Virus record (IMG/VR): IMGVR_UViG_3300047159_000056
Coordinates: 128,001-192,000 of that record
Origin: a virus
Taxonomy: Duplodnaviria; Caudoviricetes
Length of the DNA stretch: 64,000 nucleotides
Strand: one strand, 5' to 3'
In this document: piece by piece, positions 9,381-60,027 of the stretch
Layout: each line of letters opens with the position of its first letter
How positions within the stretch are numbered: position 1 is the stretch's first letter
Program-made: the position numbers and the translations under genes
Notes under the pieces: generated by a model
The model's input: only the letters and a program-made list of their open reading frames with translations
Told to the model about the DNA's origin: nothing
Database searches by the model: none

Positions 9381-10045
9381 AATACTCTATTTACATGTTT
9401 TATATATGCCTTAGATAGTCTACTTTCACTATTATATGGATTTTTATAATAATCATTCAGAGCTTCTTTCAAAGACTTATATGATTTATCAGTTCCATAA
9501 TTATAAGTTTTACTCTTAGTATTATAGTATAGTGCGTCATCAGGATTATCCATCTGAAGAGCCTCTATATCATTGCTCCCAGTATATGTTGGTTCAAATG
9601 TTCCCATAACTGGTATATTAACATAGGCTCGTGGATCTTTAGTTATTCTATATTCTTTAACTATTTCTGGAGTAAATTTCTTTTGATTTTTCATTAACTT
9701 CAGATAATCACTGGATAAATTATATCTTTGGGGAACTATGAATTTTTTGTAGTCGTAGTCATATTTATTGTTGAGACTATTTTCCGCGTCACTCCAATCA
9801 ACATCGGGAGAAACATCGTCATTTCTATGTCTATAAGCATCAATTCCTCCATGTATAGCACCAATAGTTCCACTAATAGCCGATCCAATTAAGGCACCTT
9901 TTCCACCGTCATTTACTGCCCAGCTTCCTATGCCTCCTCCTATTAGTGCACCTCCTATAACTCCGGGAATTGCTTGTATATATGCACCCTTTGCTACTTT
10001 TTTAAATGTACTATCAGAGAAATTTTTTATTCTTGGTAATATCAT
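9377..10045 (-). CDS. leader-bearing glycine-zipper protein with SUKH-like domain
   Basis: MILPRIKNFS; close paralog of 10042 (DW.DAENSL..KYDYDYKKFI ... YIKHVNRVL). Confidence 0.6.
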   Translation of the reverse strand: MILPRIKNFSDSTFKKVAKGAYIQAIPGVIGGALIGGGIGSWAVNDGGKGALIGSAISGTIGAIHGGIDAYRHRNDDVSPDVDWSDAENSLNNKYDYDYKKFIVPQRYNLSSDYLKLMKNQKKFTPEIVKEYRITKDPRAYVNIPVMGTFEPTYTGSNDIEALQMDNPDDALYYNTKSKTYNYGTDKSYKSLKEALNDYYKNPYNSESRLSKAYIKHVNRVL

Positions 10046-11824: not shown

Positions 11825-12419
11825 TTTCTTTCTTTTCTTTTTTTACAGTATGTTTTCCTATAATTTTTCCAATCTGTCTTGCACCATAACCTAGAGCTAT
11901 TGGAACTGCTACTCTAGCCACAGCATTTTTTACAAGTTCAGATTTTCCAAGTCTCTTTGCTTTTTCCAGTTATAATAGTCTTTCCTATATTTTTCCATTT
12001 CTTTTTCATGCTTTTTATACTTATGTAATTGTTTTGCATAGGCATAAGCAGCTAAGCCAATTGGAATAGAAGCTCCTAAGATAGCTCCCTTTCTTCCCGC
12101 TTTTTTAGTTCTTTCACTATTATTTACTTTAATATCTAGAACAGAATCTATTAGTGGTTTCTTTTTATTAATATAGTCCTTTACATTTTCTCCAGCCCTA
12201 TTTACCATGTCATAGAATTCTTTTTTCTGACGTTTCTTAGAAATTGATCTTGCGAGTTGACTAACATTATAAGCACTATAAGGTGTAGTAGGACCAGCTA
12301 ATAAAACTAATCCTGTAGCTGCGGCTGATGGATTTAAAACTCGCTTAGGCATTCTTGGTTTACCAGATTTTTTAGTTTCATCATTAGACTTAGAAGAAAA
12401 TCTTTTTTAGTATTATCAT
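11805..12419 (-). pseudogene. leader-bearing membrane-anchor protein broken by two compensating 1-nt indels (error or decay)
   Basis: Removing one A in the A6 run at ~12403-12408 gives MIILKRFSSKSNDETKKSGKPRMPKR, joining ORF 11930..12352; a second shift near 11945 continues ELVKNAVARVAVPIALGYGA... to TAA at 11805. Confidence 0.55.
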
Positions 12420-12479: not shown

Positions 12480-13073
12480 TTAGATATTCTTATGCTCTCT
12501 ACTATAATGTTCAAATGTAAGAGTCATAGAAACGTCTGCACGATCGGTTTCACTATCAACCTCACCATTTTCATTTAGTGGAGCATCCTGGAATTGACAG
12601 TTATAGAAGTTAAGAACCTTAACATCAATACGCTGTGCATTGGTAATGATTAGTTGCCAGTCAGATACTAGGTCATCCTTTCTGAATGAATATCTTGTCT
12701 CTGGATCAGCAATTTTATTTCTCCAGTCTGTTGCGAAATAGGTAATAGAAGCATCCTCACGATCAACGAAACTCAGGGTAAGAGTTCCACTGGTGTTCTG
12801 ATTTGTTCTTTGTTCTATTCTCCATCCACCTCTCATTTGTTTTGTAATACCAGTTGCTGAATAATCAATACCTACCTGTACGCTATTCAATCTGGCGTTA
12901 ATAATGTCATCACCTGGATAGTAAACGATTTTAGGGGCATTAATACATTTTAACTCCCACATATCTCCTCTAAGGAATTCTTTATTATTATCCTTATAGG
13001 TATTCAGGTAATCGATAAATTGCATACGTCCACTATAATCTTTTGAACGTACTAAACTAGCTACTGTTGCCAT
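12480..13073 (-). CDS. tail tube protein (T4 gp19-like)
   Basis: 197 aa; GTLTLSFVD..D..I..F..DW, VSMTLTFEHY tube-fold pattern; follows a sheath-like gene. Confidence 0.7.
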   Translation of the reverse strand: MATVASLVRSKDYSGRMQFIDYLNTYKDNNKEFLRGDMWELKCINAPKIVYYPGDDIINARLNSVQVGIDYSATGITKQMRGGWRIEQRTNQNTSGTLTLSFVDREDASITYFATDWRNKIADPETRYSFRKDDLVSDWQLIITNAQRIDVKVLNFYNCQFQDAPLNENGEVDSETDRADVSMTLTFEHYSREHKNI

Positions 13074-15355
13074 AGTTCTCTATTAAAATTTATTGTTATG
13101 TCTAGGCTAATGTCATTCTTTATGAGATCGCTCATTTTTGTGTCTAGACTTAATGTTACTTTATTATCGTAATAATCCAAATCCATGTAGACTATTGTAA
13201 TTGATCTAATGATAGAAAAATTATCAACAACTCTATCTAAGATTTTTTGTATATTGTTCTGAATCTTACCAGACATTTTTTCTCCAAGATAATTCCACTT
13301 ATTCTTTTCCAGTTCCCTAGAAATTTTACTTAGGACAAATCTTTGAAGTCCTGTGTTTTCTGGCTTTGTTCCGTCAAGATACGTTTTATAATAGTATTCC
13401 AGTCCATTATCTATTAGGTAATTAGACTTTTTCTCTTCGAGTTTCTTAATTAAGTCTGGTTTATCATTATATGTGTCTACTTGTGTTGCATCCATCGGGG
13501 TATCATAAACTATATTATCTGTTGTAATAGAATAGATATCACCCAATAGACCTTGTAAAAACATATAATATCCCGGCCTATAGTAACCATTTCCAATATA
13601 CATACTATTATAGAAATATACTAACCTATTATATGTATCTCCTATATAATTATACGTGTAATTGGTTGAGTTATTTTCTATTAAGATCTGGCAGTCTTTT
13701 GTTTCTGCTAAGTCTCCTAAGTCTTTATATATTTTATAATAAGACTCTTGGTAAATTGTATTGTCATAGTTTCCTATATTTGGCATTAAGAAAAAGTCGA
13801 ATATTATAGTGGAATCAAATAGTTTATCCAAGGATGTTCTGTATGAATCAGTTGTGTAAGATTCTTTCCATGACCTGGCTAGAACCCATGACCCTTCAGG
13901 TAATTCATTCTCTTCAACAACATATTTAATTTTTTCACCATCAGAATTTGTCCAGTAATTATTTAGTTTACAATAGACAAGTTTACTATTTTTGGATATT
14001 ACATAATCAAGTCTTTCTTCTCCTGTTTCAAAAATATATCCTTCATATATCTCAGAATAATCATACCTAGATATTGAAATTCTATAATTGTCTGTATCTA
14101 ATTTCTCTATACTAATTGTGATATCAGATTCAGGTCCATCCGTTCCAATAGTTTTACTCCAAAATTCTATTCTACTAGTATTTTCTGTATAGTCAGTTAA
14201 GATATCCTGTGTTTTGTCAAAGCTTGGTTTTAAATCTAGTATTGACATCTTATAGAAATATGTAACTGGGCTAGGAAAATCAGATACAATAAGAGTTTCC
14301 TGAGTTTCACTATCTACTGTTAAGCTATATCCTAGTTTCTGAATTTCTTCTATTAAGTCATCTGATGTACTTACTTCTACTGATTTATTATAATATTTTG
14401 GATCTACACTTCCTGTATCTCCATGCTTTATCATAACATAATTGCCTAAGTAATCTTTCAGAATAATATAATCTCCTTCAACTAGGGTAGTCCCTTTTAA
14501 GTTAAATGAATAAGCATAAGTCTGATAACCGTCCTTTATTTTATCTAAGTTTATTCCTTCTGTATTTATTATTTTATTGCTCTGAGAATAATTTATTTTT
14601 GCTATATCTCCACTAGTTGGATTTACTACTATGCTTTTTAGTTCTCCTAGTGATGATGCTGTATAATTGTAGCCATTAGGTATAGAACCCATTAAGACCC
14701 ACTTAGAATTATTATAGATGTAGTATTCTGTATAGTCTCTCTTAGCATACTCATGACCAAATGCTGGATGACAATAACTAACGTCTGTTCCAACTTTACA
14801 TAGTCTTAATGTATCCCTATTAAGAGAAGATGCAGAATTAACCCCAGTATTTTGAGAGAGATCATCTACATTTACATAGTTTTCTTGATCACTTAGCCAA
14901 ATTAATTTATCATACTTTAGCGCAGATAATCCAACATCATATTTTCCAGATTCTCTAATTACTTTATATATAATTTCGGGAGAGCCTACTTCTGGTAATG
15001 ACGAAAAAGAGTATTCACCTATTGTACTTCCTGTAAATGAAAAATCAGATTCAGTATAGTATAAATGTTCTACATTATTATAGATACTAAAATCTATATA
15101 ATCTTTTTGCCATTCATTAGGCTCCTTTGAGATTGGTTTATACAAAAATAATGTTACACCAGATAATAGGAGCTCATCAAAATAGTTTCTCTCTTTAAAA
15201 TTCTTTCCAAACCATATATCCAATTCATCTTTTGTATGAATAAGAATTGGCTTCTCATAGGACATATAGATATCTGGAACTTCTGCAAATATCATGAAGT
15301 CATCATATTCAGCAGTAACATAATTTATTTTTGTATTTCCTAATCTGATATACAT
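13061..15355 (-). CDS. second tail-sheath-like protein
   Basis: C-terminal sheath-like domain (QRFVLSKISREL...YLGE...IQKILD...VTLSLD); shares the NP..GD.AKI repeat with the main sheath; directly upstream of the tube gene. Confidence 0.55.
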   Translation of the reverse strand: MYIRLGNTKINYVTAEYDDFMIFAEVPDIYMSYEKPILIHTKDELDIWFGKNFKERNYFDELLLSGVTLFLYKPISKEPNEWQKDYIDFSIYNNVEHLYYTESDFSFTGSTIGEYSFSSLPEVGSPEIIYKVIRESGKYDVGLSALKYDKLIWLSDQENYVNVDDLSQNTGVNSASSLNRDTLRLCKVGTDVSYCHPAFGHEYAKRDYTEYYIYNNSKWVLMGSIPNGYNYTASSLGELKSIVVNPTSGDIAKINYSQSNKIINTEGINLDKIKDGYQTYAYSFNLKGTTLVEGDYIILKDYLGNYVMIKHGDTGSVDPKYYNKSVEVSTSDDLIEEIQKLGYSLTVDSETQETLIVSDFPSPVTYFYKMSILDLKPSFDKTQDILTDYTENTSRIEFWSKTIGTDGPESDITISIEKLDTDNYRISISRYDYSEIYEGYIFETGEERLDYVISKNSKLVYCKLNNYWTNSDGEKIKYVVEENELPEGSWVLARSWKESYTTDSYRTSLDKLFDSTIIFDFFLMPNIGNYDNTIYQESYYKIYKDLGDLAETKDCQILIENNSTNYTYNYIGDTYNRLVYFYNSMYIGNGYYRPGYYMFLQGLLGDIYSITTDNIVYDTPMDATQVDTYNDKPDLIKKLEEKKSNYLIDNGLEYYYKTYLDGTKPENTGLQRFVLSKISRELEKNKWNYLGEKMSGKIQNNIQKILDRVVDNFSIIRSITIVYMDLDYYDNKVTLSLDTKMSDLIKNDISLDITINFNRELWQQ

Positions 15356-46414: not shown

Positions 46415-48283
46415 TTAAAATATATTTTCTAGCATATCTTGTACTACCTTTGCTGACTCTTCTCTAGAATCTTCAGCCATTTTAGAGATAATGCTAAGTT
46501 GTTTATCTACCCCATTACTATATCCAGATTCCTCTCCAGCATCTATAGACATTTTTAAGCTATAACATGCACTAGCCAAGGAATCCCAAACATCTTTACT
46601 TCCTTTTCCATTATTAACATCAAAGACATTAGAATTTTGAGTTGCTTTCTTAGGGTGATCTATTTTATATCCCTTTGAAGTAGGAACATATCTAAGATCA
46701 TAAGCCTCCCTTAATAATCTTCTATTTTCTGGTATCTCAATCATTTCTAAGAGTATGAGATTTTTTAAATATAAGGCTGGATCACAAGGAACATTATCAG
46801 TAGAAATTCTTCCGTTAGTAGCTATGTTTTCCCTTTCACAATCTTGAAGAATTTGTTTAGAGAAAGCTATATCGGCACTAACTACAATATTATATGTTTT
46901 CTTAAGAGACATAATTAAGTCAAATACATGAAATAAACTAGTCTCTTGTCCTTCCTTTCGAGCTATAGCCAAACTAAATATACACTTAACTTTAGGCCAC
47001 TTAACTCCATTTATTATCTCCCAACCATCAAACTGAACTGCACTCATTCCAGTATAATCATCTACTGTAGCTAAGTCAAGTCCTAACCAAATAGTAGAAG
47101 TTGGTCTAACTAATGATAAGGCAGGAGAAATTTTATCTATTATTCTATCAGTCTTATCAAAAAAGTCAACCTGGATAATCTCTGGTATATTATTCTTTTT
47201 CTTATAACAATTTACCATATGCTCCATGTTTCCACCAAAGAATGAATCAGATGCACTAGTAGAAACACCACACTTATCCTGTAATGTTTTTTCTAGATTC
47301 AATTTGCATTCAACCATTAATTGCCAGGGTAATCTAAGAACTCTATCTGGATCTTGGTCTTCTGCTAATTTATAATCTTCAGCTAATATTTGTGGAGGAT
47401 ATTTACCATCTCCTATATATACTGGGAAAGTTCTACCACGACTCTCTTTATAGGATTGTGGTTTAACTTCATAATGAGTTGGCTTACAGTACCAAGTTAA
47501 ATCAGAAGGAGAATTATCTAAGAACCATTCAGTACAGGAATTATTACCTTTTGCTGAGGAGTCTATAATTAAGTTTCCCACCTTAGTCATTGCATCTCTA
47601 TCAAATCTAGATGTAAAACGACCATATGCTGTTTCAACTATTCCTTGCGCTTTCTCTTGATTAGGATAGAAGTTAATCTCACTTATTATATATACAAGAA
47701 CATCACTACCAAGACCAGCCTGACTTAGAGGGCCTGATGTTAGTACTTGAAATTTAAAACTTTTCTTAGTATTTTTGAAGAATGGTGACTTTTCCAAAAC
47801 TTCTTGAGTAAACCAATACTTAAACTCTTTTCTTGCAACCTCTTCATCCCTGTGATAGATAACTGCACTAAAAGGCTTTGGAGTTAGTTTAAGAGTTCTA
47901 CTAGGATTATTCATACAAAGAAGTCTAGCATAAGTCATAGCTAAACATAATCTAGATACAGTAGACTTACCAGTACCAATTGCTCCAGATAGAACTAAGA
48001 ATGGTTTTGCAGTTAAGACAGAACTGGGATAAATTATTGGTAAACTCTTCTTCCAATAGTCAAAGAGATTATTTCCTTTATCAAAAAATTCTGTTCCTCC
48101 TAAGAAATACTCATCAGAATATAATTGCTCTATACTAGGTGGTATTTTATTGTAACCATTTATCTTACAAAATATTAATAGTTTTTCTTCATCCGTTAAC
48201 TTTGCATATTGCTCCTCTATTGAAACTCCACTGAAATCAATTAGGGATGTTGGGTCTGTATGATCTATAAAACTATTTATCAT
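46415..48283 (-). CDS. terminase large subunit
   Basis: Walker A SGAIGTGKS, YIISE (Walker B), DSS motif III, RNase H-like GLDLATVDD, IDHP...KDVWDS. Confidence 0.85.
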   Translation of the reverse strand: MINSFIDHTDPTSLIDFSGVSIEEQYAKLTDEEKLLIFCKINGYNKIPPSIEQLYSDEYFLGGTEFFDKGNNLFDYWKKSLPIIYPSSVLTAKPFLVLSGAIGTGKSTVSRLCLAMTYARLLCMNNPSRTLKLTPKPFSAVIYHRDEEVARKEFKYWFTQEVLEKSPFFKNTKKSFKFQVLTSGPLSQAGLGSDVLVYIISEINFYPNQEKAQGIVETAYGRFTSRFDRDAMTKVGNLIIDSSAKGNNSCTEWFLDNSPSDLTWYCKPTHYEVKPQSYKESRGRTFPVYIGDGKYPPQILAEDYKLAEDQDPDRVLRLPWQLMVECKLNLEKTLQDKCGVSTSASDSFFGGNMEHMVNCYKKKNNIPEIIQVDFFDKTDRIIDKISPALSLVRPTSTIWLGLDLATVDDYTGMSAVQFDGWEIINGVKWPKVKCIFSLAIARKEGQETSLFHVFDLIMSLKKTYNIVVSADIAFSKQILQDCERENIATNGRISTDNVPCDPALYLKNLILLEMIEIPENRRLLREAYDLRYVPTSKGYKIDHPKKATQNSNVFDVNNGKGSKDVWDSLASACYSLKMSIDAGEESGYSNGVDKQLSIISKMAEDSREESAKVVQDMLENIF

Positions 48284-48363: not shown

Positions 48364-48849
48364 TTAAATTCCGATTATTTCTCTAAGAGGACGTCCTTTT
48401 CCTCCATTAATAGATTGCATTCTTGAATTAAATTTTGCAAGGTCTACAGCATTCTTAACGGCTTTCTTAGTAACTGGCTGACCAGATTCTCTAAGGCCTA
48501 CTCTAGCAAATCTTCCTAAAGCTTTTTGTACACTTGGATTAGTGGTGTTATATATTCCTTTTCCGGCTCTTCCAGATCTTCCAGCTATACCAATGACTTT
48601 ATTTATTACTTCCTCCTTATTTGCATTCTCTATTCCTCTTCTGCTGATCTTTTTACCAATATCTCTTATTCTAGAAAGTGCTTTGGCCTGACTTCTTATA
48701 GATGCATACTCTTTCTGTTCAGGTTCTTCGTCAGAATACATCATTTCATCCAGATATTGATCTTCGTCTACAAATTCTGTAGAACTAAATAGTCTTTCCT
48801 CACCATTCTCATCTTCAAATGTCGAGTATAGTTTACGTCTTATATACAT
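48364..48849 (-). CDS. MYIRRK-leader basic protein
   Basis: Likely start ATG 48849 (MYIRRKLYS...EERLFS...QKEYA), followed by an R/K-rich body. Confidence 0.65.
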   Translation of the reverse strand: MYIRRKLYSTFEDENGEERLFSSTEFVDEDQYLDEMMYSDEEPEQKEYASIRSQAKALSRIRDIGKKISRRGIENANKEEVINKVIGIAGRSGRAGKGIYNTTNPSVQKALGRFARVGLRESGQPVTKKAVKNAVDLAKFNSRMQSINGGKGRPLREIIGI

Positions 48850-48850
48850 G

Positions 48851-49575
48851 TTATTTCTTTTTATTATGTTTATATTGGTAATATTTATAACCACCATATC
48901 CAATACCACTAGCTAATGCCAATCCTCCAGCAACTTTGCCGACTGTCTTAAGATTTTTGATTCTTCTTAATTTGGCATTTTTTAGAATCTCAGTCTTCTT
49001 TGCTGCGGCTTTAGCTTCTGCTCTAGCAATATTTTCAGACTTAGCTCTAGCCTCTGCTCTAGCTTTTTCTCTCAACTCTTCTTTTATTTTTGCCTTAGCA
49101 TTTTCAGCATTAATTCGCTTCTTGATATCATCCTCTACTTGTTTTTCTATGGCGGATTTATTACGTTTTAATTTATTATCAAAAAGTTGACTTTGATGTT
49201 CTGGACTAAGTCTATGGATTCTAGAGAACTTATCATTAAATAAACTCTTAGCTCCCCTTCTTTGAGCGGCTCTTCCTTCTTTAAGTAGTGATTCCTGCTT
49301 ATCGGCCAGTTTAGATATATCTTTCATACCTTCTACTTTGGGACTCCAAGATCCTCCTTTAACTAAAGGTGTGGTAGAAGCAACCTTATATTTATCATAT
49401 ACCTTCTTATAGCTTTTATCTATAGGGTTAGTAAGAAAATTATCAGTTGAAGCACTTTCTAATCCTATCTTCATATCAGACAATGCTCTTCTAGCCTTTT
49501 GTGCTTTGGAATTAAAGGTTCTTTCCTCTATCTCCCCCCCCCCCCTGAGAGGATATTGTTTCTTAATATTATCAT
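48851..49575 (-). CDS. leader-bearing basic anchor protein interrupted by an out-of-frame G12 tract
   Basis: ATG 49575 overlaps the upstream TGA (ATGA); MIILRNNILS-G12; G10 or G13 would fuse it to ORF 48851..49483 via EIEERTFNSKAQKARRA. Confidence 0.7.
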
Positions 49576-49865
49576 TTTATTTTATTAATTAGAGCTCTTC
49601 CTTTTTCAAGAGCTAATTGTTGTCTAACTGCAGTGTCTAATTCTAGTGTCTGAGGTGAAAACTTAGGATTATCAAAAGGAACAATTAGGTTTTTATATTT
49701 TTCCAGAGTCCTAAGAGAACCGCCCTTAGTTACTGGTTTCTGTATAGCGCTTTTGTATAATGCTTTCTCATACATAGGACCTTCAATCCCCTTTTTCATA
49801 ATCCACTTATTCTTTAGAATCTTATTAAGCCTATTAGAATAAGTTTTTTGTCTTAAGACTATCAT
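49572..49865 (-). CDS. small leader-bearing basic protein
   Basis: MIVLRQKTYS. Confidence 0.6.
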   Translation of the reverse strand: MIVLRQKTYSNRLNKILKNKWIMKKGIEGPMYEKALYKSAIQKPVTKGGSLRTLEKYKNLIVPFDNPKFSPQTLELDTAVRQQLALEKGRALINKIK

Positions 49866-50569
49866 GATATTCCGTTATCTTTTTTTAATAAGTCCATAAA
49901 TTTCTCTATGGTTTTCTTTGTTTCTGGATCATCAAATTCTTCATTACCAGTTTTTTCTGCTAATTTCTTCAATTCTAATTCAGAACCGTCAATCATAATG
50001 TCATCTTTCATCTCTTCTATCTGTGTAATAAAGTTCATGATCTCTCGTACAGCTAAGAAGGTATCTTGAATTGTCATCTGAGACTTATCAAAAAGGTTCT
50101 TAGGATCCAGTACATAATCAATAGCCAAGCTTAATTTACTTAGCATATGAACAATTAAGATAGGACGAATTGACTTAAATATTTCACTGAGATATAATTC
50201 TAATGTTCTTCTGCTCTTTGGGTCACTTACATTTACTAGAGTTTGAGATAGAGAATCAAAATTTATCTGAAGGTCTGTTCCATACTCTTTATTATATTTT
50301 GTAAATACCTGACTAAGAGCTAATTGCATTTCTTGTGCTTTTTGTTCTTTTTCGTTTTTAGACAGGGCAGAGGCATCTACTATTATATTCTTAGCAGTTC
50401 CAGATAGAGGTAATTTAGGAGCCTTTGATATAATTGATTTCATATCTGACTCTACATCTTGATCAGGCTCTATTAATTCATAGTTGTCTGACCTATGATC
50501 TTCTTTACTATTACTTCCTAAGATCTGGCGCTTAAATTCTTCATTATCAAAAGGATTTATTGCCTCCAT
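49862..50569 (-). CDS. helical hypothetical protein (terminase small subunit candidate)
   Basis: 235 aa, helical, no leader, upstream of the large terminase; position only. Confidence 0.3.
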   Translation of the reverse strand: MEAINPFDNEEFKRQILGSNSKEDHRSDNYELIEPDQDVESDMKSIISKAPKLPLSGTAKNIIVDASALSKNEKEQKAQEMQLALSQVFTKYNKEYGTDLQINFDSLSQTLVNVSDPKSRRTLELYLSEIFKSIRPILIVHMLSKLSLAIDYVLDPKNLFDKSQMTIQDTFLAVREIMNFITQIEEMKDDIMIDGSELELKKLAEKTGNEEFDDPETKKTIEKFMDLLKKDNGIS

Positions 50570-50581
50570 AATTATAACTCC

Positions 50582-50731
50582 TTAATTTGTAGTTGATTTA
50601 TCAGTTGCAGCTGCCTTTGATGCTCTTTCCATTTCCTCACCAAGAGATGCAGCTTGTTCTCCGTAGTCTTCATTTTGCATAGCCTCTACGTCAGAATCTG
50701 AAACTGAATATTTCTTTCTTAATAATATCAT
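50582..50731 (-). CDS. 49-aa leader-bearing acidic peptide
   Basis: MILLRKKYSVSDSDVEAMQNEDYGEQ..., read manually; ATGA overlap with the upstream gene. Confidence 0.6.
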   Translation of the reverse strand: MILLRKKYSVSDSDVEAMQNEDYGEQAASLGEEMERASKAAATDKSTTN

Positions 50732-51177
50732 TGCTGTGGTTGTTGTTGAGATTGATCTAGATTACTTTTCTTCTTTAGAAACATAGATCCAAGTACACCA
50801 GCTGCAGCTAATCCAAGTCCAGCTTTTCCCATTCTTGCTATATTTTTTCCAGCACCTGTAGCACCAAATTTACTCATGTCTCTAACATAACCAGATGCTT
50901 GTTTATAATTCATCCTCATATTGGGGCTAGTAAGAACAGTTTTTAATCCTCCTTCTACTCCATTATTAATCAAAGCTTTATTTGCAGCAATACCATGTTG
51001 AATTGCAGAGGCAGTGGCTAGACCTGCTCCAGTTACAGCAGCTCCTTTGGCTATAGTGGAACCTATATTGCTTCCTTGAGAATTATCTTGTGAATCACCA
51101 TTAATGGATCCAGTATTTTTTCCACTTCCAGTCATAAAATCCATCATCCCAAAAGATTTATTTCTTAGTATTATCAT
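50728..51177 (-). CDS. leader-bearing G/A-rich two-helix protein
   Basis: Likely start ATG 51177 (MIILRNKSFG). Confidence 0.6.
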   Translation of the reverse strand: MIILRNKSFGMMDFMTGSGKNTGSINGDSQDNSQGSNIGSTIAKGAAVTGAGLATASAIQHGIAANKALINNGVEGGLKTVLTSPNMRMNYKQASGYVRDMSKFGATGAGKNIARMGKAGLGLAAAGVLGSMFLKKKSNLDQSQQQPQQ

Positions 51178-51817
51178 TTCTACTATTCTTATCTTTATAG
51201 TGTTTATATGCAACTAATCCAAGACCAGCTAGAGTTAAGGCAGATGCTCCACCAACTAATAATTTTCCCTTCTTTGATTCTAGGAAAGTATCACCTAGAT
51301 TTGGATTAGACATAACATCTTTTAACATGGCAGATTTTTCTCTACCTATTTCTATATATCTATTTGGAAACTCTTTTCTAACCTTTCTTATTCCAGAGGC
51401 TAGAGCTTTCCTATAAGACTTCAATGCCTTAGTCTGATTTTTATTAAGACCTTTAAAATCAGATCTAGAGAAACTTTTTATCATATCCATCCTATTATTT
51501 CCAGTATCATTAGATTTAACCCAACCTAATTTAGTATATAGGTCTACAGCTTTCTTATTACTTTTTGTTACTGATAATTTTTTAGCAGGGCTACGTTCTA
51601 AAAGACTTGTTGCTATTCCTTGATTTCTATATTTTGGATCTACAAATAGTGCAGTTATCCAATCATTTTCCCAGGATTTAAAACCAACCAGGGAAGACTT
51701 ATCAACTAACATTATTCCTTTAGTTTTACCAGGAATATATCTAGCATGGCAAAGAGAATTTCCAGGCCTTTTATATTGTAGTATATTTTCCTTGTTATAT
51801 TCTATTTCTTTTACCAT
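51158..51817 (-). CDS. GNAT acetyltransferase fused to a leader-family anchor module
   Basis: LFVDPKYRNQGIATSLL motif A, N.KAV.LY.KLGW motif B; internal IKSFS followed by a 45075/46006-like module. Confidence 0.75.
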   Translation of the reverse strand: MVKEIEYNKENILQYKRPGNSLCHARYIPGKTKGIMLVDKSSLVGFKSWENDWITALFVDPKYRNQGIATSLLERSPAKKLSVTKSNKKAVDLYTKLGWVKSNDTGNNRMDMIKSFSRSDFKGLNKNQTKALKSYRKALASGIRKVRKEFPNRYIEIGREKSAMLKDVMSNPNLGDTFLESKKGKLLVGGASALTLAGLGLVAYKHYKDKNSRNDNTKK

Positions 51818-51956
51818 AATTTATTTCAGTTTATTTTTACATAATCTGGGGAAGTGTGTTTAACTCAGGTCTCCTCTTTCTACCTGACACCTCCCACTAG
51901 CATCAATTAGTTTTACCGTTAGTTATGTTAGCTACTGTACTTCACTAAACTTACGA

Positions 51957-52103
51957 CTATAACCACATTGGACCTTTGTATCCCTTGTCGTAAAGATTTT
52001 CATAACTCTTAGCTGCTAAAAGTATATAAGCTTTAAACGGCAAAATCAAATAATGACCTGTCGTTTTAGCAGCCGTCTTAATAAAATTAAAAACTGCTTT
52101 CAT
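51957..52103 (-). CDS. 48-aa small protein in a highly structured transcript
   Basis: MKAVFNFIKTAAKTTGHYLILPFKAYILLAAKSYENLYDKGYKGPMWL, read manually. Confidence 0.5.
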   Translation of the reverse strand: MKAVFNFIKTAAKTTGHYLILPFKAYILLAAKSYENLYDKGYKGPMWL

Positions 52104-52149
52104 AATAGAACTAAGATGTGGAGTCGAACCACAACCTAGTTAAATTTGT

Positions 52150-52193
52150 TCTCTCAGTCTAATTGAAGAGATAGGTTCTTCACCTCTGAGAGA
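52150..52193 (-). ncRNA. three-way-junction RNA element, divergent copy E
   Basis: UCUCUCAG-AGGU..ACCU-AU-CUC UUCAAU UAG-A-CUGAGAGA. Confidence 0.55.
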
Positions 52194-52198
52194 TATAT

Positions 52199-52835
52199 TT
52201 ATTTATCCTTATAATGATTATATGCAAGTAATCCAGCACCAGTTACAGCAGCGGCTCCTGTTACAGCAGTTGCTACTTTATGATTGCCAATAAATTTACC
52301 CATCTTTCCTATAAAAGATGTATTATTAGGTTTAAATGTTTGATTTGTTACCCCACCGTGAACAAAATTTGCAGCTTTAACCTTTGGGCTAATAATTTCT
52401 GCCTGTTTAGTTACCTTGGCTGCAGCTTCTCTTGCAGCTTTTGATTGAGCTAATTGCTGCTGATGCTCTTGTGAAAGATTACCTATTCTTTGATTTATAT
52501 TTTGTCTAGTTGTTTGATTAGCAACAGATTTTGGAATTCCGGCCCTATTAGCAGATCTTCCATTAACTAATAATTCTTCCTGTATAGCTCCTTTATTTTG
52601 TGTAGCTTTATCTTGAAAAATTTTAAATTTTGCATTCTCTGTTCCACGCTTAGCTACAATTGGACTATTTGCTGCACCATTAACATCATATTTAGCATTA
52701 TATTTAGGATTGGCAGCAATATTTCCCTGATTCATATCCCAGGAAGCTCTTCTAGCTTTCTGAGCTTGGGAGTTAAATGTCTTTTCACTTAGTACCCCCC
52801 CCCCCGAGGAAGGTATTGTCTCTCAGTATTATCAT
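52199..52835 (-). CDS. leader-bearing anchor protein interrupted by an out-of-frame G11 tract
   Basis: MIILRDNTFL-G11; G10 or G13 would fuse it to ORF 52199..52735 via VLSEKTFNSQAQKARRA. Confidence 0.7.
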
Positions 52836-53115: not shown

Positions 53116-53520
53116 ATGATAAAAAATCTAATAATTTCAGTTGACTTTGATGGCACTTGTGTAGCACATGATTTCCCGAGAATAGGGGAAGACATAGGAG
53201 CTATTCCAATCTTAAAAAGAACAGTAGAGAATGGAAATAAGCTTATCTTAAACACAATGAGGTCTTATGGTGATGGTGAAATAGAAGACACAATTTCTCC
53301 AGCTATTGATTGGTTCTATGATAATGGCATTGAACTATGGGCAGTTAATAAAAATCCTAGCCAACATAAGTGGACAAATAGCAGTAAGGTGTTTGCTAAT
53401 TACTATATAGATGACACAGCCTTAGGAGCTCCACTTAAGATAGACCTAAGATTAAGCAGAAGACCTTTTATTGATTGGGAAGCTATGGAAAAAATATTAG
53501 AAGGAAAAGGAATAATTTGA
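53116..53520 (+). CDS. HAD-superfamily hydrolase (BT0820-like)
   Basis: ISVDFDGT motif I, LILNTMR, K..A.YYIDD; the only credible plus-strand gene. Confidence 0.8.
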   Translation: MIKNLIISVDFDGTCVAHDFPRIGEDIGAIPILKRTVENGNKLILNTMRSYGDGEIEDTISPAIDWFYDNGIELWAVNKNPSQHKWTNSSKVFANYYIDDTALGAPLKIDLRLSRRPFIDWEAMEKILEGKGII

Positions 53521-53561: not shown

Positions 53562-54266
53562 TTATATTTTTGTAATAATCTCATCTATCATACCATACTT
53601 TCCCCAGTCTCCACCTTTAGAAACTGGTAAAGCTTTTTCTGGTCTGACCCAATTATCTCTATCCATTCTTTTCCAAATCTCGTCATGATCTAGTCCGGTT
53701 GAATCCATATAGATCTTACAGATATCCTCTTTTAATTCTGTAATAAATTTAGCTTCTATTTCTATATCTGTTTGCTGACCTGATGTTCCTCCCATAGGCT
53801 GATGACATAGGAGTTTAGCAAGTGGTAGAGCTCTTCTTTTTCCTCTTGTCCCTGCAGTAAGTAATAGATTTGCACAGGATGCTGCCTTACCAATAGCTGT
53901 TGTAGATATATCATTTTTGACAGCTCCCATAGTTCCTAGTAAACCAAATAAGTCAGTTATATTTCCACCAGGAGAATTTATATAAAACTCTATATCTTTC
54001 CCATCGTCCTGTTGATTTAAGAATAAGATTTCTCCAATTGCTATATTACAGGTCTCTGGACAAAACTCATCTCCAAAAAATATAATTCTATTCTCTAAGA
54101 GGTGAGAAAATATATCTTGTTGTGACATATTTAATTCTGCCTCTTTTACAATATACGGAGATATTGTATTTCTTGTCTTACTTACTCTATCATCAAAACT
54201 AGTCATCTTATAAGGGTTTTTATCCTTATAAAAATTTCTGAAATCTTTAAATGTTTTCTTTCTCAT
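53562..54266 (-). CDS. clpP: ATP-dependent Clp protease proteolytic subunit
   Basis: RIIFFG, YINSPGG, GKAAS (Ser), HQP (His), DRDNW (Asp); Bacteroidetes-style N-terminal extension. Confidence 0.9.
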   Translation of the reverse strand: MRKKTFKDFRNFYKDKNPYKMTSFDDRVSKTRNTISPYIVKEAELNMSQQDIFSHLLENRIIFFGDEFCPETCNIAIGEILFLNQQDDGKDIEFYINSPGGNITDLFGLLGTMGAVKNDISTTAIGKAASCANLLLTAGTRGKRRALPLAKLLCHQPMGGTSGQQTDIEIEAKFITELKEDICKIYMDSTGLDHDEIWKRMDRDNWVRPEKALPVSKGGDWGKYGMIDEIITKI

Positions 54267-59334: not shown

Positions 59335-60027
59335 TCACTTTTTCCTCAACTCAAAGATTTCGTCTATACCAAGTCCGTGATATATTTTACTTCCTATATT
59401 TCCAGAATAACTATGATGAAAATGTCCATAAAACCAATATGAAAATCCCATCTCTCCTATGATACTGGTTAGGTAGGGTTCGCTCAGATACAATAGAGTT
59501 ATAAGTTTCTTCTGTCATATCACGGTCTCTAAAACTACAGGTTCAAATGATATGGGCGCTGTATGGGAGACAATTATATCTGCTCTCCCGGGATATTTAT
59601 CTACTCGTTCAATTTTTTCTCCTTCCCAGAAACACTTAGTCTTTATCTTTTTCTGAGCTTCTATTCTAGCTGCTTTGTCAATAGAAGTAGCTCCACCAAT
59701 GGGATATATACTCCAACCAGCAATATTAACTAGTTCATGGTCCTCTAAGAATTTTAATCTTGGATAGTCATGTTTTCCATCAAACCAAGCTGGATCATCA
59801 TGATTTCCTCTAATTGTATAAAGTCGTATATCATTTTTCTCCAACCTCTTAAGTACTCTAGAATACATAACATCCATAGACTTAGGACGACCAAAACCTA
59901 CTCCAAAATCTCCACAAACGACTAGGTCAATATTGGTAGCTTTATATCTTTCGGTTATAGTCCATACAAGTTTTCTTAATTCTCCATGTATATCCCCACA
60001 AAAATAGATAGACTTCTTCTCACTCAT
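59335..60027 (-). CDS. calcineurin-like metallophosphoesterase with an apparent internal break
   Basis: GDIHG, CGDFG, RGNHD, SHTAP; the final WFYGHFH motif lies beyond TGA 59515 in the same frame, ending at TGA 59335. Confidence 0.75.

Follow-up and report, generated by a model that had tools for sequence, protein, structure and literature searches.

Slipped-strand mispairing at poly-G tracts drives ON/OFF phase variation in bacteria, where switching by repeats is a classic strategy; do two long G runs in an uncultivated phage serve the same end? The runs, which we call tract A and tract B, lie in a stretch of 64,000 nucleotides (nt), referred to here as the window, that spans bases 128,001-192,000 of a 207,396-bp IMG/VR virus record (IMGVR_UViG_3300047159_000056; 33% G+C). 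Each run falls near the start of a small gene, and the products of these two genes, A and B, are paralogs (40% identity over 157 amino acids (aa), E 4e-21). An initial annotation, made without database searches, had proposed that both genes are switched off by poly-G tracts placed inside a shared leader, and that the tracts are candidates for phase variation. Our analysis points the same way: we consider it probable, at roughly 70%, that the two G runs are phage-borne slipped-strand contingency loci which switch two paralogs on and off, since the tracts are real, are kept as homopolymers, and are polymorphic in length.

Two poly-G tracts at codon 11 of a shared leader

Every long gene near tract A and tract B lies on the minus strand. 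The parts of the two loci are as follows, with all positions given in the window.

49534-49545, minus strand: tract A, poly-G, G12 in the record; natural alleles G7 and G10, both in frame
49546-49575, minus strand: gene A leader, codons 1-10, MIILRNNILS, with the ATG at 49575-49573
49572-49865, minus strand: upstream open reading frame (ORF) of 97 aa, whose TGA shares the sequence ATGA with the gene A start codon
48851-49533, minus strand: gene A body, readable only at tract lengths of 3n+1, with the stop codon at 48853-48851
52795-52805, minus strand: tract B, poly-G, G11 in the record; natural alleles G10 (in frame) and G9 (out of frame)
52806-52835, minus strand: gene B leader, codons 1-10, MIILRDNTFL, with the ATG at 52835-52833
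52199-52794, minus strand: gene B body, readable only at tract lengths of 3n+1, with the stop codon at 52201-52199

Reading the frames confirmed that both tracts begin at codon 11 of homologous N-termini, that the start of gene A at 49575 overlaps the upstream stop codon, and that both genes are out of frame as written. Gene A runs from its leader through G12 into AGA TAG, where the ATG frame closes (TAG at 49530-49528), and gene B runs from its leader through G11 into ACT AAG TGA (TGA at 52787-52785). Only run lengths of 3n+1 link each leader to its long frame, which begins (E)IEERTFNSKAQKARRA in gene A and (V)LSEKTFNSQAQKARRA in gene B, giving products of 241 aa and 212 aa, respectively, with G13. 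The other two registers meet a stop codon 1-7 codons past the tract, and yield products of 14-21 aa. Gene callers place the starts of these genes internally (207, 178 and 202 aa in databases), and such switches are thus systematically hidden from annotation.

The claim that these are the only long G/C homopolymers held when the whole record was scanned: over 207,396 bp, G/C runs reach a maximum of 5 nt, with one G6, followed by the runs of 11 and 12 nt and with none of 7-10 nt. From base composition, ~9e-4 runs of at least 11 nt would be expected in the record. GGG makes up only 6.6% of glycine codons, and GGG-GGG accounts for 0 of the 267 Gly-Gly pairs in ORFs of at least 150 aa.

The codons directly 5′ of every MIILR-type tract are pyrimidine-rich, reading CCTCTCA, CCTTCCTC, CTCCTACCCA and CTCACCCA (49546-49552 and 52806-52813 in the window; 9928-9939 and 12596-12606 in contig L006). 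RNA folding of these four tracts predicted that the pyrimidine-rich codons pair with the G run, but with z-scores of -0.8 to -1.9, which are not significant. Gene B in the record also lacks nine in-frame bases at 52722 (three codons; K-N-S-F in place of N) that are present in all five other contigs.

Natural tract lengths in this phage and a sister phage

Relatives were located by protein search, through near-identical products carrying the leader and two or three glycines, and their contigs were then compared with the window. At 99.4-99.8% identity to the window, the contigs of this phage, all of them consensus contigs, have tracts of the following lengths.

Gene A tract, G7, ON: L010-L014, L022 and L023 (seven contigs)
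Gene A tract, G10, ON: L015/L016
Gene A tract, G12, OFF: window record
Gene B tract, G10, ON: L011-L013 and L022-L024 (six contigs)
Gene B tract, G9, OFF: L015/L016
Gene B tract, G11, OFF: window record

As a control, we compared the short-read contigs L011 and L015, in which none of 33 A/T runs of at least 6 nt differ in length and both of the two G runs do. Short-read calls of the tracts are reproducible, because independent assemblies of one lineage agree in length, and the gap between G7 and G10 or G12 at gene A is too wide for a miscall of ±1 nt. Tract lengths therefore differ among near-identical genomes and both frame states occur, in keeping with the proposal of hypermutable, frame-switching repeats. 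The well-replicated short-read contigs of this phage are ON/ON.

Other routes to relatives returned little. A megablast search of the locus against 50,697 phage records gave no match, and scans of IMG/VR with the proteins of gene A, gene B and the nearby protease, and with a DNA pattern of the tract flanks, gave no relatives. The degenerate pattern FNS[KQ]AQKARRA recovered no relatives from viral_contigs, and three distant homologs plus one false match from metagenome_contigs.

A sister phage with 77-87% nucleotide identity to this phage, found in five samples, carries four pure poly-G tracts, each after 12-13 leader codons of separate small genes that flank the terminase gene.

Sister tract T1: MYIKRK leader gene; G10, ON
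Sister tract T2: gene A ortholog; G10, OFF in four samples and G9, ON in the fifth
Sister tract T3: MIILRNNNFSHP leader gene; G9, ON in five samples
Sister tract T4: MYIKRK leader gene; G9, OFF in five samples

Over 3,836 aligned bases, the sister contigs L017 and L006 differ by two substitutions and a single indel, and this indel is the T2 tract. Compared over 215 codons with its sister ortholog, the body of gene A has a ratio of nonsynonymous to synonymous substitution rates (dN/dS) of 0.16; the ortholog is OFF in 4 of 5 samples, and the low ratio indicates that this ORF is maintained under purifying selection even so. Taken together, these loci hold homopolymers of a length prone to slippage within coding sequence, their lengths vary beyond the controls, each change toggles between a full-length product and an early stop, and the ORF is maintained despite OFF alleles, all of which are features of contingency loci.

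The leader regions of T1 and T4 (L006:9217-9341 and 13054-13187) form a repeat of 125 nt, tract included, with 95% identity between the copies, and a number of metagenome contigs stop right at this repeat. We had considered the contig ends at tracts (L007, L017 and L029) as a sign of heterogeneity within samples, and rejected this because the ends coincide with the repeat.

The initial annotation had suggested asking whether homologs keep pure poly-G or encode the glycines by mixed GGN codons, and had taken a single in-frame length in all accurate reads together with mixed codons in homologs as the pattern that would speak against switching. In the closest homologs this leader position still holds pure G runs, and the contigs compared do not have that pattern. 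Further away, distant homologs read MIILRQKEFNSKAQKARRA, with no glycines at the tract position, and we therefore regard the glycine-tract segment as a lineage-specific insert; the sister ortholog of gene B has a short spacer without a G run. The insert comprises 13-15 codons between a degenerate first motif (NNILS or DNTFL) and an intact second motif (E[RK]TFNS). The MYIRRK genes of the window have a spacer with one mixed-codon glycine (..DENGEE..) where the sister has a run of G9-10. A profile search of 1.84 billion representatives returned 84 family members, and outside this phage and its sister one of these has a glycine run in the leader.

Competing accounts of tract variation

Several observations weigh against switching. 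Compared with short-read L011, the record has nine other 1-nt indels, all of them changes of homopolymer length, between 59535 and 56958, as the initial annotation had cautioned when it noted further indels. Those at 59535 and 59478 break a metallophosphatase ORF (60039-59338) that L011 has in one piece, and the nine probably represent assembly errors confined to that stretch. One T8 in the record is T7 in both L011 and L015. Given these indels and the T8/T7 difference, homopolymer lengths here are not fully trustworthy, and the G12 and G11 lengths may be miscalled. Over the 12 kb that surround the tracts (56.9-45.0 kb), the record has no other 1-nt indel relative to the short-read contigs. 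The genes are thus out of frame as written, as had been claimed, but a true OFF state is not established, given the indel errors and the ON/ON state of the well-replicated short-read contigs; we rate the chance that this genome is truly OFF/OFF as even at best, or somewhat lower. The sole other OFF allele of this phage, G9 at gene B, is weak evidence, as it comes from one sample assembled twice at ~2x coverage (L015/L016), and the seven G7 contigs may share one project and so may be one strain. In the sister, T4 has an out-of-frame length in each of the five samples and its ORF of 156 codons is intact, which could mean stable slippage decoding at the RNA level, not switching of the DNA. The leader duplication seen at T1 and T4 may give several tracts one origin, so recurrent evolution of tracts is unproven. 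Finally, the variation is known as differences between consensus contigs, and reversible switching within a population is putative.

These points can be assembled into an account with no switch, in which the tracts are real but are glycine-linker codons expanded by slippage in a tolerant, disordered leader, this phage is truly ON/ON, its apparent OFF/OFF state is an assembly error, and length differences between strains are polymorphism, neutral or slightly deleterious, of accessory genes that the phage can do without. Such an account agrees with the ORF-breaking indel errors elsewhere in the record, with the in-frame state of every well-replicated short-read contig of the phage at both tracts, with the placement of the tract in a segment predicted to be disordered, and with the coexistence of in-frame alleles with two, three and possibly four glycines, which shows that the linker tolerates changes in length. 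It is harder to reconcile with the rest: pure G runs are kept over ~20% nucleotide divergence though GGG is a rare glycine codon, G/C runs of 7-10 nt occur nowhere else in 207 kb, and the record has no other 1-nt indel within the 12 kb around the tracts. Neutral linkers or artefacts can fit this record but not the OFF alleles of the sister, which are reproducible in short-read assemblies (T2 at G10 in four samples, T4 at G9 in five). We consider this account unlikely.

Programmed recoding, in which the frame would be restored at the G run, by stuttering of RNA polymerase or by ribosomal frameshifting, with a set ratio of full-length protein to a leader peptide of 14-16 residues, draws on the intact 156-codon frame behind sister T4, out of frame at G9 in five samples, and on the ability of long homopolymers to let tRNAs re-pair in any register. 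Tract length, however, is not fixed (7 to 12), unlike that of a programmed site, and the shift needed varies by allele, being -1 for gene A at G12, +1 or -2 for gene B at G11, -1 for gene B at G9, and +1 for sister T2 at G10; on these two grounds recoding is unlikely as the main mechanism. There is also no notable downstream stimulatory structure (fold z-scores of -0.8 to -1.9), and transcriptional slippage in bacteria is documented mainly at A/T runs. Owing to the always-OFF sister T4, recoding survives as a minor and very improbable rival. A further account treats the tract as a recombination joint, in which leader and G run provide microhomology that lets protein bodies be swapped from one locus to another, with frame switching as a by-product. 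In L030, a strain variant from the same sample as L014, the gene A locus has an A-type leader, G8, "ag" and a gene-B-type body, in frame, and the gene B locus has its B leader joined, at the would-be start of the tract, to an unrelated P0003-like body, out of frame and lacking a G run; the gene set flanking the terminase also differs between the phage and its sister. The exchange regions lie at L030:1180-1330 and L030:5118-5546. This single contig could be a chimera of metagenome assembly, and a joint leaves the length changes of ±1 and ±3 between otherwise identical genomes unexplained. As the primary role of the tracts we find a joint quite improbable, and the idea is compatible with contingency loci and not an alternative to them.

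Under the contingency-locus reading, slippage of the polymerase during replication of the phage DNA would add or remove one or more G, at a rate and with a reversibility that we infer. Lengths of 3n+1 alone would pass through a linker of two to four glycines into the E[RK]TFNS motif and the body, and the other registers would end within seven codons, so that progeny genomes would form a heritable, reversible mix of gene A on or off and gene B on or off. Each tract would act as part of the 13-15-codon insert within the leader of a small, predicted all-helical protein of the head-assembly/packaging module, in a segment predicted to be disordered and upstream of the second and last [KR]x[FY] leader motif. 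If the leader is cut at this second motif, the in-frame alleles, which have two or three glycines in nature, would give the same mature protein, a logic that would parallel repeats within the cleavable leader peptides of bacterial surface proteins.

A broader scheme is more speculative, and we lean against it in its full form: poly-G switches in a removable capsid-targeting leader, together with the leader-tract joint as a crossover for exchange of bodies, could combine phase variation with cassette shuffling of ejected proteins in an uncultivated jumbo-phage clade. Each burst would then contain virions with different sets of proteins injected ahead of the DNA, presumably hedging against host defences that sense these proteins or are blocked by them.

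Head-module setting, known switches and further G runs

Four neighbouring genes bear on what the products of genes A and B might do.

53562-54266, minus strand: ClpP-family head-maturation protease (phrog_94, E 1.3e-26; PF00574 on orthologs), ~730 bp upstream of gene B
46415-48283, minus strand: large terminase subunit, 622 aa, identified by a fold match, two genes downstream of gene A
48367-48849, minus strand: leader gene without a tract, MYIRRKLYSTFEDENGEERLFS...; its sister counterpart, the next gene after gene A and ~34% identical, has G10 at the single glycine of the spacer
50731-51177, minus strand: leader gene MIILRNKSFG..., with a canonical leader and no tract, which shows the leader without the insert

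The terminase has a Walker A motif that is invariant in 30 homologs, and its AlphaFold model (predicted local distance difference test score (pLDDT) 83.5) matches the HK97, D6E and T4 gp17 terminases in Foldseek with probability 1.0. It shares no more than 28% identity with the terminases annotated in cultured phages, and its homologs occur on contigs of up to 394 kb, which places this phage in a jumbo-phage clade without a cultured close relative. Sequence searches of the PDB with the neighbouring large proteins, and a profile search with the terminase, gave no match, and fold alone identified the terminase.

Approximately 20 ORFs in the window open with MIILR[DN]K.[FY]S, MYIRRK.[FY]S or variants of these, and the same pattern is seen in relatives. 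A short N-terminal tag common to otherwise unrelated proteins of the head module is what characterizes the capsid-targeted proteins of T4-type phages. The tract-bearing genes sit between the head-maturation protease and the large terminase, and do not read as receptor-binding or tail-fibre genes. The products of genes A and B had no match in Pfam; in PHROGs, gene A gave weak matches to families of function unknown, and neither product gave a stronger match. In the model of gene A, residues 1-22, comprising the leader and the glycines, have no secondary structure (mean pLDDT ~50 or less), and beyond residue 22 the protein is predicted to be all-helical, with a long helix at 124-218, a C-terminal hydrophobic helix of Gly-zipper type and a basic tail. 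The initial annotation had the phage varying its cargo proteins; the variation in length and frame stands, but the putative role of the products as packaged cargo, suggested by the position between protease and terminase and by a leader shared with ~20 small genes, is not established.

How does this arrangement relate to known switches? To our knowledge, experimental demonstration of such switching in phages is limited to Campylobacter phages and, in a 2025 preprint, T-even phages. Hypermutable poly-G on/off switching has been attributed to the Campylobacter Fletchervirus phages (Sorensen et al. 2021, Cell Rep 35:109214, as cited in PMC12823448), where, according to the citing papers, the tracts concern receptor-binding and host-recognition functions. 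As described there, both cases involve poly-G runs in coding sequences of an AT-rich phage genome, changes in length that toggle genes, and mixed progeny; ours differs from the Fletchervirus tracts as cited in that the runs lie at codon 11 of a shared leader, in genes for small helical proteins of a protease-terminase module, in an unrelated jumbo phage. We detected no sequence relation to the Fletchervirus system. In phages T2 and T4, contingency loci undergo reversible polymerase slippage as bet-hedging against host defence in the form of restriction systems (Gomez, Barrick, Waters, bioRxiv 10.1101/2025.10.21.683753); these are mostly poly-A runs of 6-9 nt distributed over all gene classes, with ~7e-4 measured by deep sequencing (bioRxiv 10.1101/2025.10.21.683753). 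The homopolymer runs within phage genes are alike, whereas our phage has two exceptionally long G runs (11-12 nt), both at one set position in a leader, and the evidence consists of differences between samples.

Bacterial parallels are found in Neisseria, where the poly-G of pilC lies in the region coding for the leader or signal peptide. The CTCTT repeats of opa likewise lie in the leader-peptide region, and switch at ~1e-3 per generation (PMC3960869). As in opa and pilC, the repeats described here are in an N-terminal leader, and removal of the leader from the mature protein, which we infer for this phage, would make an in-frame change cost-free. The Neisseria leaders are Sec signal peptides of bacterial surface proteins, in contrast to the phage-specific MIILR...[KR]x[FY]S leader. 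Closer in setting are the internal proteins of phage T4, which have an N-terminal capsid-targeting sequence cleaved by the prohead protease. Both cases comprise many unrelated small proteins with a shared N-terminal tag of ~10 residues, encoded near head-assembly genes; there is no sequence similarity between them, and for this phage cleavage and packaging are suppositions. We know of no T4 internal-protein gene that carries a repeat switch in its tag. Poly-G and poly-A switching in phages is already known, and what is new here is the phage lineage, the gene class and position (the leader of a head/packaging module), and the natural alleles from metagenomes. The device thus occurs in an unrelated, uncultivated jumbo-phage lineage and outside host-recognition genes, with on and off alleles visible in public metagenomes. 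If the products are indeed packaged and ejected, the population would vary what enters the cell at the start of infection, and the tracts would identify a new class of target for bet-hedging, possibly against host defences, and a lead to defence and counter-defence proteins.

A number of other features were seen around these genes. A GNAT acetyltransferase domain (51161-51817, minus strand) is fused to a C-terminal Gly-rich hydrophobic helix and basic tail (..AYKHYKDK..). Genes A and B, like several more of the small genes, end in this module, which is thus found on an enzyme too. The region has a single plus-strand gene (53116-53520), which lies after the protease and before gene B; it is kept in every contig of the phage, and matches phosphoheptose isomerase (phrog_1238, E 1e-26). 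The MYIRRK leader gene at 48804 in the window (L015:~8290) lacks one G of its AAT GGT GAG spacer in L015/L016 and is out of frame there, which given the low coverage may be an error; the spacer glycine affected corresponds to the G10 run of the sister phage. No G run reaches 6 nt in 21.9 kb of L031, a closer relative. Distant jumbo relatives have runs of G9-G12 between genes, 41-56 nt upstream of the ATG of leader-bearing genes (L033:4134-4145, 12163-12173 and 13420-13429; L034; L018:620-628; L020:5-16; and, in L019, ~60 nt upstream of 8587). A C-rich box with the potential to pair with the run lies 15-40 nt beyond each of them, run lengths are equal in L033 and L034, and the runs may be a version of the same device located in a 5′-untranslated region or promoter.

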